A stretch of DNA of 58,083 nt, counting the filler, from Diploschistes diacapsis (taxonomy: Eukaryota), in assembly GCA_023645945.1 (NCBI GenBank). It is 7 parts of 7 records of this genome, joined end to end, with 100 filler letters (N's around TTAATTAATTAA, not from the genome) between each part and the next. Parts side by side here need not be neighbours in the genome. Positions count along the whole stretch, not along the records: positions 24,991 to 33,203 come from JALAIB010001183.1; 6 more parts are not named here. One strand, 5' to 3'. The notes beneath the pieces are model-generated. The model had not been told where the DNA came from. It made no database searches and was given only the letters and a program-made list of their open reading frames with translations. Below are positions 24,991 to 33,203 of the stretch, in pieces. How positions within the stretch are numbered: the first letter of the stretch is position 1; the number at the start of each line of letters is the position of its first letter. The position numbers and the translations under genes were made by a program.

Positions 24991-25324
24991 GGATAGGGTC
25001 AATAAGGGAGTTTTGACAGGTGACGCGTAGGCTCTAGCCTGTCTGGCTTCTTCCCCCAACCCTCAAGAAGAGGGCAAGGAAGTTGTGCCGGGTACTGCGA
25101 GGTGATTTTTTCTTCCGAACAGACTCACATCTTCAATATTGCTGCGGAGCTTTCATTCAGTAAGTGTGCGCAGAAAGGCGACAGCGAGCCTCAGAACATT
25201 GGTCGAGAAATCCAAAATAGTGCATAGATTCCCTCTACCTCTCGACCTCGTACGTACGTGGCTCTTAGCCTTAATCCTCGATACTTTGAGTCCCTGTCCC
25301 GGACGTTCCTCCTTTCGCCATCTC

Positions 25325-25390
25325 GCGGCTTGTGGGCTTGTTGGCTTGCGGCTTGCGGCTTGTGGCTTGTGGCTTATGGCTTGTGGCTTT
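25325..25390. repeat. Degenerate (GGCTTGY)n 7-bp tandem repeat
   Basis: About nine units: gcggcttgtgggcttgttggcttgcggcttgcggcttgtggcttgtggcttatggcttgtggctt. Confidence 0.85.
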
Positions 25391-25567
25391 TTCGATTTCT
25401 ACGTGGAAGATCAGCGCTTTTCTCGGACTCCTCTCCGGCCCTTTTCGGCTTTTCGGCTTTTCTGCTTTTCTGCCCCGGATGCGCGAAAGCTTGGCAAACC
25501 CTCCAAACTCTAAGCGCGGATCCTATCGTCAGAATGAGGTAATGGTCATTTCTTCCATAATTGCTTG

Positions 25568-25640
25568 CAGATACACATGCAGATACAGATACAGTACAGT
25601 ACAGTACAGATACAGATACAGATATAGATACAGATATACA
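25568..25640. repeat. (CAGATA)n/(CAGTA)n microsatellite
   Basis: cagatacagatacagtacagtacagtacagatacagatacagatatagatacagata. Confidence 0.85.
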
Positions 25641-27044
25641 CTACAGATAGAGTTGCACTACTACGCTGTCCCTTTCGTCAGCCCCCGGCTTGAGGGGCAC
25701 TCCTTGGTGCACAGCGTTTTGAGTCCGAGTATAAGGCCGAAGATGCACTTTGGCTTGTGATTGGGTGGGCAAAGGAGGAAGCGAATGCTGGATGCACTCC
25801 CGCTACAGGGTCTGAGTGTGAAGGCTTCTCATTTCTCGCTTCAGGTTGTGGAGGGTTTGTGCGAGGTGTTCGCCTCATGGTGTACAGGCATCGGATATGC
25901 TCGTGTTCATTTGGCTGCATGGGTGCGTGCAAGTATGTGTATGCGCGGACCGGGTCCGTGATCCTTAGCCTGTTTCCCCTCTACTCTTTGTCCAAAACAA
26001 GCCATGTCCTGTGCTTGCGAAAAGTCTGATTCCTAGGCATGAAAGCTTCTGCGTTACTTTACTTGGACGACATGAAAAATGCGGGCATGGCGGATGCGTT
26101 TGGTGAAGGATGGACCCTGTTTTATAGAGGCTCCCCCAATGCTCAATTGGAAGAGAAGCGGAGCTTCAACAACTCTTTATGGCGTCTGATTGATGTCGCA
26201 CAGAGGGGACAAACCCACAGTGAAGCTCTGATGAACATCACAACTTCAAAGCTGTCCCATGGTCACAGTCCGTTGCCGGGTCATAGGCTCAGGGAGTCAA
26301 GCACTTGTCAACAAAGAAGGTATCCACACAGCCTTTCATCTCAATTTCCAGGGCGGCGATTGACCTCGGGGTGCCGGAGAGTAAGTAGATACAACTACTT
26401 AAAGTGGATTATTTTTGACATGGTGACGAAGCAACCTTCGTGTGCTTCCTTGCCTATCTAGACGCGGATAGTAGTGCTTACTCTGGTATGCTTGTAATCG
26501 ATGCCAAGGATCGAAGACGATGTTTTGTATTATTGTTTTTGGAAAGAAACAGAAAAAAGGATTTCTTTGACAAGTGGAAGTCTGGACAGAGGTACCAGTG
26601 ACAGTGAGGGAACCGTGGCATGGAGGAATAGGTATCTAGTAAGTAGTAAGTAGATACACTCTGTAATGAAGGAAATAAAAGGTCCATAGTTTTTTTTAGC
26701 TTTCTCTCTCCTGCCCAGTGTGTCCCGCTGAATCAAGCTAAACCCACTCACAACTCCCCGCTATCCTCAACTTGCACACTGCTCGCTCTCGTACTTCCGT
26801 ACTCGTTTTTCTCTTTTTCTTCCCCTTCCCCTTCCCTCTTCCCTCTTCTTCACTCTTTAAAAACCCCCCAGCATCTACACGCATCTTCGTTCGAGGCAGA
26901 GGTAGCCGGTGTATACTGTCGGTTGTTTTGATCCCGTTCCTCCCTGTTCTTAAGCGTCGCCGGTGTTCTTGATTTCTTGATATCGACTCGGTACTTCACC
27001 TTTGGATTTCCGTCCCGCCTGTTACTATCTTCTTAAACAAACCA

Positions 27045-27808
27045 GTAAGTGAATCAAGTTTTTTTTCCTGCCTGTAAACCGTCCGCGGTGAAGACTCGGC
27101 CTCGACTGGACGTCGCCCGATCGCGATTTCACCTCCCAAAGGCATGGTGCATGCGACAACCTCCTAATCTGGCAGTTGTGCTATAGTCATCGCAAAGCTC
27201 TTCATTGAAGGGCTGTGGTGGTTGGTGTCTGCTGCACCAGGATTTTCCATTGCGTTGACGAGCCGGAGCATGAACTTCGGAACCGATCAAGCTGTCGCAT
27301 CGCTTTCGGGAGGGAATGCTGCCATTAGGTGCATGCTGCCGCCCTTTGAGCTCATTGCGCCGACACTCCGTCGATGCGCCCACGCAATCCCAGACAGCTG
27401 GCTGACTCTTGTTGAAACAGAAACTGAAGTCTATCAGCATTTCTCGAATCCAACAACACGCGCTGCTAGCCTTACGCAAGCGCTGCAAAGGAAGAACACC
27501 GGGCTTGTTTGCAAGGTCTCCGTCAAGCAGTGCTAGCCACGAGCATCTTCGAACCCTCTTCGAACCCTCTCTATCGAAGATAAGGTTTTGTCTCGGAAGT
27601 TGAGCTGCACGAAGCTCTGTAGGATCATAAAAGTTTGTAATATCACCGTGTGTTTGCTTGTGTCCACGTCAACAGCTGCTTAGGTATGTCACACGCAACG
27701 ATATTTGCTATCTTCTTTTCCATTCACCATACTCTTTGTGCAAACCATATGGTCATCCTCCCATCATCATGATAATGTACTAGGACTAACTGTACTCATC
27801 TTCTACAG
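27045..27808 (+). other. Probable long 5'-UTR intron of NAM8/NGR1
   Basis: GTAAGT donor at 27045 downstream of a pyrimidine-rich tract (about 26780-26860). ACTAAC branch and CAG acceptor at 27808, about 200 nt before the ATG. Confidence 0.55.
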
Positions 27809-28009
27809 TCGGCCTCTTAACAGTTATTCCAACTTGCGCCGCCCCCCGCGTACTATTCAAGACTTGAAACCCCCCGCGCGTACCTCAACATTAGAACTCC
27901 CTGCGGATAGTCTTAATATATTTGAATCCGACTTCCGAAAAGTATTCATTGCGGTATCGAAGCTCCGCTTTTACCCCAGTTCTTGTTCTTCACTACTACA
28001 ACGTTCAAG

Positions 28010-29572
28010 ATGAGTTTCCAAGCTTACGACCAGAACCAAGCTCAATCCGGGCCTCCTCCAGGAGCTCAAGCCCCCCAACAGCAGCAGGAGGGTATGCAAG
28101 GTCAGCCGGGCATGGACGGCTCTCAGCAAATGTTCCAAGGTGGTGGACAAGGCTCCGATGGCGCCTCAGCTGGCGGTCAAGGGAATGGCGATTCAAAGAC
28201 TACTCTTTGGTAAGTGAATACTCCTGAGATCGTATTCCGTTGGGAGCGCCGTATAATTTTGCATACAACAATCTACCCAGTCGCAGCCGTTTACTCTGAT
28301 TGCCGGTCAGTCGTTGCTGTTTCATGAAGGATATGACCGCCATCGGTGCGCATCCGGCTAATGTTGACACGCACAGGATGGGCGAACTTGAGCCTTGGAT
28401 CGATGAAAACTTTGTACGCTCCGTGTGGTACGGCATGGGCGAACAGGTCAATGTCAAGATGATTCGCGATAAGTTTTCTGGGTACGCCTCTTCTACCCCG
28501 CTGATCTTTGTGTACTCGCGTTTAACTCGTGCTTGCTGATTATAGTAGCAACGCCGGTTACTGCTTCGTCGACTTCCCAAACCCTGCCGCAGCTGCCAAA
28601 GCTTTGAGTCTCAACGGGCAACCGATACCAAACTCGAGCCGTCCCTTCAAATTGAACTGGGCTTCTGGCGGAGGCTTACAGGATCGAAGGTGAAGCCCCT
28701 CTTCATACCTCTTTCAAAGTCACATGTTCAGAAGAATATACGCTAACATGACTATCATTTTCCACAGCCGCGAAGAGCGTCCCGCTGAGCACTCCATCTT
28801 CGTTGGTGATCTCGGGCCCGAAGTCAATGAATTCGTTCTCGTATCTTTGTTTCAAAACCGTTTTCCTTCATGCAAATCTGCCAAGATCATGACCGATCCC
28901 ATCACCGGCGTTTCTCGTGGCTATGGCTTCGTTCGTTTCTCCGATCAGCAGGACCAAGAGCGTGCTCTCAGGGAGATGCAGGGTGTCTACTGCGGCAATC
29001 GTCCTATGCGCGTCTCAGCTGCTACCCCAAAGACCAACCGGCAGGGCGGAGCTCAGCAGAGCGGTCCGATGAACATGCCTGGGGGACAGCCGGGGCCAAT
29101 GGGCGGCATGTACGCCATGGGAGGAGCACCGATGGGTTACTACGGACAGCCACAGCCGATGAATCAATTCACCGATCCCAACAATACCACCGTCTTTGTC
29201 GGCGGCCTGTCCGGCTACGTCACCGAGGACGAGCTCCGCTCCTTCTTCCAGGGCTTCGGAGAGATCACCTATGTCAAGATTCCTCCCGGAAAGGGCTGCG
29301 GCTTCGTTCAGTTTGTGCAGCGTCATGCTGCAGAGATGGCGATCAACCAGATGCAAGGTTATCCCATCGGCAACTCTCGGGTCCGTCTTAGCTGGGGCCG
29401 CTCTCAGAACAACTCCGGGCCTGCCGGCACTCCCTATCGTCCAGCGCCTCCTCCACCCGTCTACCCATCCATGGGCATGCCACCTCAACACAATTTCGGC
29501 AACTACGCTCCTATGAAGGTACATGATACCCCTTTGAGATTGTCATACGCTGGCTAACAATCTTTACAGTAA
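28010..29572 (+). CDS. NAM8: Three-RRM RNA-binding protein of the Nam8/Ngr1/Csx1 family (short isoform)
   Basis: Exons 28010-28209, 28377-28481, 28546-28689, 28768-29518, stop TAA 29570-29572. TLWMGEL, AGYCFVDF, SIFVGDL..RGYGFVRF, TVFVGGL..KGCGFVQF. Confidence 0.92.
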
Positions 29573-30193
29573 GGCAATGTTTCTTCTCAATCGGGTTGCA
29601 TAGCGTGGCGTCCACATTCTGCCTTTTGCTTGGTTTGACTCGGGAAGTGCTACGTTCTCATACCCCATGTTCGAAGAACTGCTTGACGGTGGTCGCCTGC
29701 TTTTCGTCTGGGTTTGCTTGCTACGATAACGAAGACGCCACGACAGTGATACCAACGTTGGTGCCAGACGAGCTTCACGAAAGAAACTCGACGGCCGTCG
29801 GTTAGGATGTGTGCCCTAGTTACTTTATTCAGGGCTTGCAGATTCGTTTCCTCCTTGTCCAACATCCAATTTGCTCATACTATGCGGTCAATTTCCTGGA
29901 CGACCACTTTACGCTTCCAGTACTGAGTCTGGAAGGGGCTAGCTAGCTGGCCCCGTGGCGGTGAAGGTAACTCTGGCAGTAATGTCTTGGTCAATGGCTT
30001 GTACTGCTAGCTAGTCTGCGAGAGATAGAACCACGTGCATTTAATGTCTTACAGAAGCACCTGAATGTGTGATTGAAAACCTGAGTCTCATTCGCGTTAT
30101 TTTACTTCAACAGCCTTTCCTAGCCCTCCCCTGCTCTCTTACAATTATCACATCCTTCGAGTAACACATAGCTAACCATTGTATAACCCGCAG

Positions 30194-30401
30194 TTCTTAT
30201 GCCGTCCACAACCACTTGGCCAACAGAGCCGAGCTCGCAAATGCCCAAGGCCCGCCTGGTGCTTTGAGTCCGAGCGCAACTGGCCCGACCCAAGGCATGT
30301 CCCCGGAGAGCATGAACGAAGCCTTTGTCGCGCAACGCCAGGCGGTCAGCGACCGCCTCGAAGCCGAGAGCAGAGGTCATGACAGCGTCTTTGCGCAATA
30401 A
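30194..30401 (+). CDS. Predicted alternative terminal exon of NAM8/NGR1 (68 codons plus stop)
   Basis: GCTAAC branch 30171-30176 and CAG acceptor 30191-30193. Open frame SYAVHNHL...SMNEAFVAQRQAVSDRLEAESRGHDSVFAQ*. Phase 2 matches the donor formed at G29518. Confidence 0.65.
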
Positions 30402-31042
30402 AATAGGTGGTATATATGAGCGTACTTTGCAGTGGGCAAAAATGGTAACTTGTCTCGCTTTCTGTCAGTCAGAGTGCCTCAGCTAGTACGTTCGGCCAGC
30501 GAGGCGTTTGTGGTGCGATGGGGGGTTTGTCGGTCTCGAGGTATCTTCAATCGACAGCTTAAAAAAAATGCAAACGTTACTACTCTCGAACCATGGCCCA
30601 TCTGGTGTTGAAGCGGCAACGTCTACTCGAGCAGGGCAGATACAGTGCCATACTATACCTAGTGCATCCCGGTGCCTTCGTTTGGCTTATGTGCCTGTCC
30701 ATCTGTCACAAAGAACATTTTTTGACCTCAACTTCACGCGTATTCTAGCCAACCGGGCAGCTCCATACAAATGCCCTAGTTTCCATTCTCTCACAATCCA
30801 TCGGTGATGTTATGACCCTCTGCAGCCGAGTGGCGAAAACGCTGGCTCTTTCCCCCTCGCCAAATTTCGACAAAAAGGGCAAGCGCCTCACATCGAAGTT
30901 TGTTTTTTATGGGGGTCTAAGATTCTATTGTTTCCTCTTCATTATTCTACATTTTGCTTCTTCAAATTACTCAGTCATTGGTCGAGTGAACATTCCGTTA
31001 GCGAAACAGCTTTGGAGAGGCCAATCCTCGAGCAACTGGAAG

Positions 31043-32929
31043 ATGAGATACCTTAGTTGGGATGTTCTATTGTTCCCGGCGGAATCTCGAGTGCCGATCC
31101 AGGAATTCAAAACTGCCTGCTATGCCGTCGTAGATTCAGAGATAATGGACGGTCAAAATGGCAGGTACATCCGGGAGATTCGCTGGAGAGCTTGTACTGA
31201 CATATAATTCTAGACTGTGACCGTCAAATACCCGTCCTTACCTCCTTTACCGCCAGCCAAGGGTTTGGCACTCCCTTCAAGGTCTCGATACATACATGGG
31301 ATGTGCCTGAATTCAGCAAGGATCTTCAAACCATGGCTCAGCATGACAAAACTCCCTATCACGAGGCTCGGGTAATAATTGATGGCGTCTTGGTAGCGTA
31401 CGTGAGCCACGAATTTGAAGGTTCACGCTGAGCTTAAAATCAAGCAGCTGGATGATGCTTGCATCTCCCAGTTCATATCCGCGGATAATAGGTGATTGGA
31501 TCCCTCGCGCCTGTAAGCACACGCATTACTTACAAAATCAGATACTGGCTACCGTAAGCCAACCTTCACCGATAGCTAAAAGCATTCGCCAGTGCATTGA
31601 CGAGCATAGGAATGACGAAGACAGGCTCAAAGGATGTCCTACGCTGGCCTGCCTTTCAGACCGAACAGCTCGCGCGTACCTACTGGAGTGCTGGAGAGAA
31701 CATGGGCCGCATCAAGGTGACTATAGCTGAAGGATATGCCAAGGATGGAGAACACTCGCGCTTTGTAAGGACTAGGAATGTAGTTACTTTCTCCTTTCAA
31801 CATGCTCCCCTAAGTACGTATCAGAACCCGGGGGAACGATCGATAGGGTTAATACGATATAGGTATCCTAGAAAACAACAGCATTGCATGGCCGAACAAA
31901 GACATGTGGCTGCCAATGTTGCCAAATACGACGGGGCTAATGTCACCCTACAAGTCAGAGCATACGCCTACAGACTTTGAGCTTCATTCTCATTCTCCAT
32001 TTCCACATATCGACTTTTCGACCCTCATCTCGAAGGAGCAATCCACGTTTGGCCGCGCTACCAATAGCCTCGAGCATTCGATGCCTCCACCTCCTTTGCC
32101 TTCGCATATCCAACAAAGACACGTCGCTTGGGGCAGCCCCGATCTTGCGAACGATCCCTTTGTTGACTCGAAGCCAACGTTGCCCAAGGTCGTGGATGTA
32201 CCTTCCATTGAGTGTAATTATGCCGACGGCGACAATGCTCTGGTTCCGTCGTTTGCGAAACCAAAATCTAGTTTTTTGGACAAGAGCTTCCTCAGCCTTT
32301 TGCCCCTGCAGACGCGATGGGAAGAGTCACTGCAGCGGCCAACATCTCAAAAGGGGGGTCGGTCGAACAACCTAGATCTAACCAGGCTGGGGGAAGTCGG
32401 CGAGGACAGCACTCTTCCCGTGTCTACGAATGTGGATTCGGTACGAACGACTCGTAGTTTTGCACCAAATTCGCAGACGGTCTTTAGCCTCCCAGCTACC
32501 GGTCACAGTCTTTCGAAGTCGAGTGCTGTTGACAGCAACGGCAGGAAGCTCCCGAGCGCGGATACAGTAATCAGGTCCCTTGAAGACGACGATCCATGTA
32601 GGCAAGACGGTCTGGCTCGGCCGCAGATCCGCCATGATCTTGAGCTTGGAAGGAAGGAGCAGCCTGCGAGTTTCGAGGCACTAGAGGTTCTGGGAGAGCT
32701 TCACACAAACCGGTTGTCCTTTGACTCTCCTCAAGCCCCGAACAGAGGAATAGAACGCCACAACATAGGGTCAACGCCCAGCAAGCTCGCGGGCGAGAAG
32801 AGAAAGAGAGGAGCCGGTAGCTACACCCGTCCAAGAAGGAGTGCATCGGTAAATTCGACACCATCGTCCACCAGAAAGAAGGGGAAGGTTGGAGACGGTA
32901 TCGAGAATCGGCCGCTGGGAACTCAATGA
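31043..32929 (+). CDS. Conserved fungal hypothetical protein with disordered C-terminus
   Basis: MRYLSWDVLLFP..VPIQEFKT, PFKVSIHTW, GRIKVTIAEG, FSFQHAPL|SILE..IAWPN..MW. Approximate introns 31161-31213 (GC donor), 31398-31447, 31492-31541, 31554-31609, 31814-31862. Confidence 0.7.
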
Positions 32930-33203
32930 GCTGAGAAAGGACGATAACAGGCCCGCTACGGGTCTGGACTGAGTTGTAGAAGAATGGCTCGAACTTGCAC
33001 AAAGTTGCCCCTTTTTAGAGCTAAAAAAACAATATAAGAACTTACACGCGGGCTGGCAATTTCAAAAGGACCCAGATAACTTGGCCCCTTTCTCTTAGCT
33101 TCTTTTGCGTGCCCTAAGCTGCAGCAGCATTCTCAGTTAGTACCGTCTACGTTGTTCTCTCTCGGAAGCAGCTATGACTTCTTGCACCATCGATCATGTA
33201 ACA

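Follow-up and report, generated by a model that had tools for sequence, protein, structure and literature searches.

Where does the coding sequence of the gene at positions 28010-30401 of a DNA stretch from Diploschistes diacapsis end, and how is its last exon joined? The stretch (the window: 58,083 nt, 7 joined parts of assembly GCA_023645945.1, in which positions 24,991 to 33,203 come from JALAIB010001183.1) carries on its + strand a gene that encodes a protein with three RNA recognition motifs (RRMs), of the Nam8/Ngr1/TIA1 type. The last visible RRM exon is followed by a 51-nt intron and a stop codon, and an open frame of 68 codons lies farther downstream. An earlier note, made from the sequence alone, had predicted that the two are connected by a [D1,2] spliceosomal twin intron (stwintron). 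In this class, the donor of the outer intron is split after its first nucleotide by an inner U2 intron, G/URWGY (PMC9024468; a slash marks a splice junction). Our analysis makes it very probable that positions 29518-30193 are such a [D1,2] twin intron and that the hidden terminal exon is real.

Signals and predicted products of the putative twin intron

The 3′ part of the gene contains the following features.

29518, + strand: G29518, which ends the exon in the short form (AAG, Lys) and is the first base of the predicted outer donor in the long form
29519 to 29569, + strand: inner intron, 51 nt, with a GTACAT donor, a GCTAAC branch at 29553-29558 (branch A 29557) and a CAG acceptor
29570 to 29572, + strand: TAA, the stop codon of the short form after removal of the inner intron, and bases 2-4 of the rebuilt donor G/TAAGG
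29570 to 30193, + strand: remainder of the putative outer intron, 624 nt (625 nt with G29518), rebuilt donor GTAAGG
29575 to 29599, + strand: pyrimidine/U-rich tract, CAATGTTTCTTCTCAATCGGGTTGC, directly 3′ of the rebuilt donor
30194 to 30401, + strand: predicted hidden terminal exon; T30194 completes AAT (Asn); 68 codons, SYAVHNH..DRLEAESRGHDSVFAQ; TAA at 30399-30401

Exon 4 ends in ..CCT ATG AAG, the last base being G29518; GTACAT follows directly, and TAAGGC begins at 29570. The inner intron has its own donor (weak at positions 4-5), branch element and acceptor, and it separates the first base of the outer donor from the second. When G29518 is joined to T29570 AAGG, the resulting GTAAGG agrees with GURWGY at 5 of 6 positions. 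The outer intron has its own branch element, GCTAAC at 30171-30176 (branch A 30175), and a CAG acceptor at 30191-30193. T30194 is the third base of a split codon, and 68 sense codons run from 30195. All splice sites, branches, the stop codon and the frame cited in the earlier note were found base for base in the window. The phase-2 donor that it required for the downstream frame is also consistent, as T30194 completes the split codon. The distance of about 620 nt given there becomes an outer intron of 625 nt when G29518 is included.

In the proposed pathway, the 51-nt inner intron 29519-29569 would be removed at the beginning. G29518 would then be joined to T29570, and the donor G/TAAGG would be built. 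In a second reaction, the rebuilt donor would be used with GCTAAC at 30171-30176 and the CAG at 30193, and the 625-nt outer intron would be removed. Finally, AA29517 would be joined to T30194 (Asn), and a conserved C-terminal tail of 68 residues would be added, giving a protein of 468 amino acids (aa). We infer that both reactions occur in Diploschistes diacapsis, in that order.

The exons were joined by script in the different ways. The two-step product was an open reading frame (ORF) of 468 aa with the junction ..FGNYAPMN-SYAVHNHL.. and no internal stop codon, and the predicted mature junction reads ..CCTATGAA/TTCTTATGCC... This long form aligned over residues 1-468 with residues 1-466 of the long-form protein P0052, end to end, with 74% identity. 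The first splice alone, with the predicted junction ..ATGAAG/TAAGGC.., gave a 400-aa ORF that ends in ..APMK and a stop codon. A one-step splice from 29518 to 30194 (..ATGAAG/TTCTTATG..) gave a frameshifted product of 462 aa. Full removal restores a frame that is collinear with the orthologues, and no single canonical excision does the same job.

It had also been claimed that one splice creates both the stop codon and the new donor. Both are present. However, any phase-2 GTAAG donor gives xxG TAA G automatically, so the stop codon is a by-product of the first splice and does not speak for design. Retention of an ancestral canonical intron would also yield a protein ending in ..K (in locus L013, AAG TAG).

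Conservation of the tail, the junction and the layout

The 68-residue tail was searched with phmmer against 1.84 billion protein representatives (E<=0.001). We obtained 29 matches, all of them 52-176 aa long, with a best E of 4.7e-19; in 26 of the 29, the tail match ends at most 2 residues from the C-terminus. Conservation starts at S-P-Y-A-A-H, which corresponds to the predicted acceptor, and the part upstream is unconserved. Of the 19 aligned sequences that reach beyond P-Y-A-A-H on its upstream side, 18 have Ser (AGY) just before the motif; a YAG/N acceptor reads so in that frame. Given this signature and the unconserved N-terminal parts, the short tail proteins look like ORF calls on last exons in unannotated fungal DNA.

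When the tail alone was searched among longer proteins, no match was found. A search of the longer proteins with a tail profile gave 20 matches, and all 20 have Pfam RRM_1. These tail-bearing RRM proteins come from Tuber, Morchella, Saitoella, Pneumocystis, Blastobotrys, several metagenome-assembled genomes (MAGs) of lichen fungi and unnamed contigs. When the junction region of P0034 was used as the query, further matches came from Orbilia, Arthrobotrys, Drechslerella, Lipomyces and Savitreella, and P0052 was also found. The window tail itself matched the profile hidden Markov model (HMM) of the tail with E 5e-32. The ratio of nonsynonymous to synonymous substitution rates (dN/dS, Nei-Gojobori) in the tail was 0.09, 0.16, 0.05, 0.02, 0.04, 0.10 and 0.16 in 7 pairs of tail-bearing loci; dS was saturated in five further pairs. 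The tail is under purifying selection in the tail-bearing related loci, and therefore it is translated in species with the twin-intron layout. On these comparisons, we regard the 68-codon frame of the window as a real exon.

The junction ..FAP[LMIV]N-[PA][HNYQ]A.H.. is present in 13 of the 20 full-length proteins, and the same AP[LMIV]N junction was found in further sequences from Orbilia, Arthrobotrys and Lipomyces and in P0052. In the window, AA+T gives Asn (APMN-SYAVH). Thus, the predicted residue is exactly the one conserved in clean orthologues. Some gene models from the lichen MAGs (P0032, P0036, P0037, P0042, P0043, P0053-55 and P0057) read ..APMK or ..GPIK, then a few unconserved residues, and then the tail. 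These hybrid models are the work of ab initio callers that sense the coding potential without modelling the true intron. Named public proteins from Dothideomycetes, Eurotiomycetes and other groups terminate in ..APMK or ..APLK, or they continue into the inner intron as ..APMKV... The exon 4 translation of L019 equals a 398-aa annotated Cenococcum protein over the kept columns, yet an intact tail lies 631 nt downstream in that locus. Since gene callers are unable to model a GG..AG intron, the short annotations are uninformative either way.

To compare the layout of related loci, we scanned metagenomes with the final 111 codons of exon 4 and used the best 80 of 339 relatives, which represent 50 distinct loci at 97% identity. 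Tails in the loci were detected with the profile HMM on the three + strand frames. The loci show the following layouts.

Class a: AAG (AAA in L035 and L050)/GT.., a short intron and ..YAG/T[AG]A, as in the window; 27 distinct loci; tail in 10, 570-980 nt downstream
Class b: ..AAG TAAGC.. in an uninterrupted coding sequence (CDS); L005, L023, L031 and L051; tail not found
Class c: ..APLK TAG.., without the inner intron; L003, L013 and L044; tail in L013
Class d: ..APRQ TAA, without intron; 5 distinct clusters; no tail within 3 kb
Class e: ..AAMN-PNAHHMH.. contiguous and intronless, also in long genomic contigs; L068-L080; tail contiguous with exon 4

AAG/GT is found in 25 of the 27 distinct class a loci, and AAA/GT in the L035 and L050 clusters. 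In all ten distinct tail-bearing class a loci (L007, L011, L012, L014, L015, L019, L020, L025, L039 and L041), exon 4 ends in AAG/GT, the inner intron is 51-80 nt long, and its acceptor reads YAG/TAAG[ACG], so that the rebuilt donor is GTAAG[ACG] in 10 of 10. The homologous inner introns of relatives have CTRAY branches. In the ten loci, the outer introns are 519-916 nt long, with a CT[AG]A[CT] branch 15-30 nt before the acceptor. The acceptor is YAG/T in all ten; the first exon base is T, and the split codon is AAT (Asn). The tail of L013 lies 757 nt downstream, behind a CTAAC branch and TAG/T; this is a plain canonical AA/GTAGTT intron, or unspliced RNA of one.

The comparative expectations of the earlier note were borne out. 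The downstream peptide is the C-terminus of orthologous triple-RRM proteins, the junction Asn is shared, and AAG/gt..ag/TAAG was recovered in every tail-bearing genomic locus with the window layout. Gene callers indeed miss the exon, as shown by the named public proteins that stop at ..APMK. The [D1,2] structure passed these comparative tests, with tail, junction and layout all conserved. We judge the window layout to be more than chance, on the basis of its conservation in relatives and not of the window alone.

Uninterrupted long-form ORFs were found in two contigs: P0052 (466 aa in a 2409-nt contig, ..APMN-PH..) and P0034 (450 aa in a 1994-nt contig, ..APLN-PH..). Genomic loci of their relatives have 2-3 upstream introns. 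Thus, these contigs are most simply cDNA. In a quick maximum-likelihood (ML) tree, P0052 was sister to L015 and L039 (Shimodaira-Hasegawa-like approximate likelihood ratio test, SH-aLRT, 85), and the three belonged to a larger group (support 88) that also contained Lecanora, Ikaeria, Gallowayella, L012 and L025. The twin-intron layout is present in every genomic member of this larger group.

Other contigs are also transcriptome-like. L053 and its cluster mates are without the intron of the genomic loci L060 and L063, which are at least 97% identical; L068 is without the introns of L069 and L077, and L037 is without the upstream intron of L016, L028 and L029. L005, L023 and L051 come from the same transcriptome-like sample series, and L031 comes from another series. 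These four read ..AAG TAAGC.. and continue for 421-1157 nt. L031, which has an uninterrupted CDS and belongs to a tail-less lineage, is without the inner intron present in L009 and L017, and its 3′ part aligns to these genomic loci from just past their inner introns. Thus, in that lineage, in which no tail was detected, the inner intron is spliced and the RNA runs past the TAA. The transcript-like L043 (1512-1560) reads ..APMN and then has a different short ending (DAQQQQTYEGAQGV and a stop codon). Its 3′ end has no counterpart in any other locus of the set, a genomic counterpart included. The Asn of L043 suggests a second-step-like junction onto another terminal exon.

Three further observations concern the loci without a tail and the position of the inner intron. 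The ..APRQ TAA loci (L046, L053-L067, L070 and L072), which have neither the inner intron nor, within 3 kb, a tail, look like an end state after loss of both parts of the twin intron. In L001, L002, L017, L050 and L054, some of which are genomic contigs of 7-164 kb, the CDS is intronless except for a short intron before the stop codon, and this hints at preferential retention of that intron. In L016, L022, L028, L029, L035, L037, L050 and L054, the sequence just past ..APMK, where the inner intron would lie, is in frame and rich in glutamine (..KVGGQQQQQQQQQQFWSPDASNHQQ and a stop codon). The transcript-like L037 keeps this segment and is without the upstream intron; the inner intron may have turned coding, or may be routinely retained, in the L016/L037 lineage.

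Other explanations of the downstream frame

Several observations weigh against the twin intron. Compared with GURWGY, the inner donor GTACAT differs at two positions and the rebuilt GTAAGG at position 6. At 625 nt, the outer intron is about 10 times as long as the outer introns (46 and 57 nt) of the published examples given in PMC5639578. The window tail is the most divergent one seen and stands on a long branch; its closest relative, P0003, is 66% identical. The ML tree is poorly resolved, with 41 of its 71 inner branches open and the window on a long branch, and P0052 and P0034 are tied to the twin intron by relatedness only, not by a genomic locus of their own. Moreover, 13 distinct loci with at least 1400 nt of downstream sequence keep the inner intron and have no detectable tail, and 9 of the 13 still read TAAGC after the acceptor. 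Thus, the conservation of TAAG is not explained by donor function alone. When the downstream + strand of the 49 no-match loci was searched for the tail at high sensitivity (hmmsearch --max to E 1000, and a regular expression), the best E was 0.26.

The 13 tail-less loci with the intron-plus-stop layout and the divergence of the window tail would suit an explanation in which the gene ends in ..APMK after an ordinary 51-nt intron, and the 68-codon frame is a relic of an ancestral last exon. The endings ..APMK or ..APLK of named proteins from many Leotiomyceta and the class b contigs, which run on past AAG TAAGC.., also speak for it. However, the 68-codon frame is intact, its stop codon is at the conserved position, and it matches the tail profile with the low E value given above. 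The window has also kept the branch, the acceptor and the phase-2 T. The rebuilt donor is GTAAGG, whereas no tail is present in any of the four loci whose donor has decayed (GTGAAC in L004 and L010; GTGACC; GTAATC). The short annotations carry no weight here, as L019 illustrates. A relic is unlikely on this evidence. The tail might instead be joined by another route: from a donor TT/GTCATA at 29542, from the contiguous G29569+TAAGG with the 51 nt as coding sequence, or by a GG..AG excision. A phase-2 GT does occur at 29542, where the frame is still open. Moreover, L011 and the Pleopsidium gene model P0032 have an open, in-frame segment in place of the 51 nt, so that the contiguous donor could be used there, and this explains the Pleopsidium model. 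Yet the read-through frame of the window meets a TAA at 29555-29557 before the contiguous donor, and GTCATA is a poor donor with no counterpart elsewhere. No stop-free phase-2 GT can be reached from exon 4 in 7 of the 11 tail-bearing loci, and those in the remaining 4 are non-homologous and unshared. The contiguous ..AG/TAAG donor is open in 1 of the 11 (L011). It needs an inner segment that is open and a multiple of three, but the inner-intron lengths are mostly not multiples of 3. Extra residues would also be expected, yet clean orthologues have AP.N directly and then the tail. GG is not known as a U2-type donor. Such routes have only a slight chance of being correct.

Still less credible, and in our view highly improbable, is that the frame belongs to a small gene of its own, transcribed from a promoter within 29570-30193. 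Such a gene could account for the fact that all 29 phmmer matches are short stand-alone ORF calls. However, their N-terminal extensions are unconserved and read like intron ends, and the window lacks an ATG from the upstream stop codon at 30162-30164 to the start of the conserved tail. In addition, the tail is fused to the RRM protein in at least 20 full-length proteins, and it is contiguous with exon 4 in the genomic DNA of a separate lineage (L069, L077 and L078). We also rejected A-to-I editing and read-through of the TAA, as the frame past it closes after 21 codons. The [D1,2] twin intron with a real terminal exon is the explanation that we prefer.

The whole gene, its putative outer intron and known systems

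Four exons precede the twin intron on the + strand: 28010-28209, 28377-28481, 28546-28689 and 28768-29518 (the end in the short form). The upstream features are as follows.

28010 to 28209, + strand: exon 1; ATG at 28010; ends in phase 2, ..TTLW with split TG/G; collinear with orthologues; ORF 27926 to 28213
28210 to 28376, + strand: intron 1, 167 nt, GTAAGT..GGCTAAT..CAG
28377 to 28481, + strand: exon 2, MGELEPWIDENFVRSVW.., start of RRM1; agrees with the orthologue consensus
28482 to 28545, + strand: intron 2, 64 nt, GTACGC..TGCTGAT..TAG
28546 to 28689, + strand: exon 3, remainder of RRM1; Pfam RRM_1 with E 1.4e-5 at 28547-28687
28690 to 28767, + strand: intron 3, 78 nt, GTGAAG..CGCTAAC..CAG
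28768 to 29517, + strand: exon 4 of the long form; RRM2, linker, RRM3, ..FGNYAPM and the AA of the split Asn codon

Phase 2 is common to the three upstream introns (28210-28376, 28482-28545 and 28690-28767) and the putative outer intron. Exon 4 matches Pfam RRM_1 with E 1.2e-34 in two stretches, and its last 111 codons have 91-97% identity to the 80 metagenome loci. The domain order is RRM1-RRM2-linker-RRM3. The best match of the orthologue P0040 among solved structures is yeast Nam8 (E 4.8e-72), aligned over RRM1-2 and RRM3 only. By sequence, the protein can be placed in the Nam8/Ngr1/TIA1 type, a placement that does not extend to a choice between Nam8 and Ngr1/Csx1.

The outer intron was compared between loci in 50-nt segments. 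Identity was 0.56-0.88 between L007 and L011, 0.58-0.96 between L015 and L039, and 0.38-1.00 between L020 and L041, where it was 0.98-1.00 from +50 to +250. For comparison, the values were 0.44-0.60 in the inner intron, 0.50-0.56 in the upstream introns, about 0.3-0.7 past the tail stop codon and 0.74-0.96 in the exons. Parts of the outer intron (L020:943-1140 versus L041:610-810, and L015:3530-3640 versus L039) are 96-100% identical; in the same locus pairs, the exons are 84-96% and the inner introns 44-52% identical. That stretch of the outer intron is more constrained than the surrounding coding sequence. The blocks TTCTCCGNTTAGCGTT and CTGTACA[AG]CA recur among the lichen-type loci. Conservation of an intron at the level of exons points to an unrecognised RNA element. 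Rfam gave no match at E<=1 in a scan confined to window positions 29400-30800.

All 11 tail-bearing loci have a pyrimidine/U-rich tract just after the rebuilt donor. Its mean T content is 0.42 and its mean Y content 0.72; the values for the inner intron, taken at an equal offset, are 0.24 and 0.53. According to PMC5648754, yeast Nam8 and human TIA1 act via U-rich sequence downstream of weak donors. With the conserved outer intron and this tract, a regulated second splicing step is plausible. One tentative form of such regulation, which we think possible but on balance doubtful, is a two-step gate: an RNA that ends in the outer intron would give the 400-aa form, and use of the rebuilt donor would give the 468-aa form, which carries the conserved C-terminal helix. 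The U-rich tract would be the type of site bound by Nam8/TIA1-type proteins, and the protein may set the ratio of its own forms. Lineages that have the inner intron but have lost the tail would be a switch frozen in the short state. The exon-like outer intron, the U-rich tract and the tail-less lineages that keep the inner intron are hints of such a switch.

A near-invariant 23-nt element, TTGCACTTTAGCGGGAGTTGGTC, is found 30-101 nt past the stop codon, with 0-3 changes across many tail-less lineages. It occurs at L017:2103-2125 and L046:1750-1772, and at matching places in L001, L009, L031, L038, L042, L051 and L053-L067, in genomic and in transcript-like contigs. The element is absent, within 4 substitutions, from the window and from all tail-bearing loci. 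It is probably an element of the 3′ untranslated region of the short-form mRNA.

The structure of P0052 was predicted with AlphaFold2 from 22 aligned long-form sequences (mean predicted local distance difference test score, pLDDT, 64). The three RRMs were confident. The tail had pLDDT <50 except for a helix at 435-455 (about 62), which spans the conserved ..MNE.Y...Q...DRLEA.. motif. No confident packing of the tail on RRM3 was seen in this model, and the tail had only a chance-level match (E 0.87) among solved structures. We infer from the model that the tail helix may bind a partner.

If the twin intron is real, public protein sets contain a conserved splicing/mRNA-binding factor that is about 68 residues short across many Pezizomycotina; a donor created only by a preceding splice is beyond what gene callers can model. 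It would also be an unusually old and widely shared twin intron, with an evolutionary series in one gene: a contiguous CDS; a canonical long intron (L013 and ORF fragments of the Tuber type); the twin intron; the inner intron and stop codon with the tail lost; and neither.

Among known systems, the lipS stwintrons of Aspergillus nidulans and A. niger are the nearest, and the lengths of their outer introns were given above. For stwintrons, the RT-PCR (reverse transcription PCR) criterion is a splicing intermediate that lacks only the inner intron (PMC5639578). The class b contigs of relatives have this form, but they stem from lineages in which no tail was found. As in lipS, so far as that text describes it, the outer donor here would exist only after the first excision, two consecutive reactions would be needed, and one-step excision leaves an extra G, with the frameshift calculated above for the window. 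Unlike the lipS stwintrons in the same account, the putative outer intron is 625 nt long (519-916 nt in the relatives). It is the last intervening sequence, and its first-step product stops in frame and encodes a complete shorter protein. Also unlike lipS, the outer intron is as conserved as the exons, and the arrangement spans several classes instead of being species-specific.

Yeast Nam8 is a U1 small nuclear ribonucleoprotein (snRNP) protein that helps weak 5′ splice sites, and its tail after RRM3 covers the β-sheet face of RRM3 between Prp39 and Prp42 in the U1 snRNP (PMC5648754). Like Nam8 (PDB 5zwn chain V and others) and human TIA1, the protein has three RRMs, and Nam8 also has a C-terminal tail. 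Unlike the case of Nam8, the tail here has no sequence match to the Nam8 tail or to any solved chain; the alignment of P0040 stops after RRM3.

In animal recursive splicing, a long intron is removed stepwise, and the first ligation regenerates a donor at the junction. That donor lies wholly downstream (AG/GTAAGT), whereas the G of the donor here would come from the end of the upstream exon, which is shortened by one base. At composite terminal exons, splicing competes with polyadenylation, e.g. for the secreted and membrane forms of immunoglobulin mu. Should the short form be a real mRNA, the gene would be similar, since ending in the outer intron versus splicing would set the C-terminus. We did not find this gene named as a stwintron host in the stwintron literature that was searched and in one supplementary file of PMC9024468. 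The [D1,2] stwintrons are an established class, and this locus is very probably a new example of it. Its unusual traits are the terminal position, the conserved outer intron of 0.5-0.9 kb, the wide phyletic spread, and the repeated loss of the tail with the inner intron kept.

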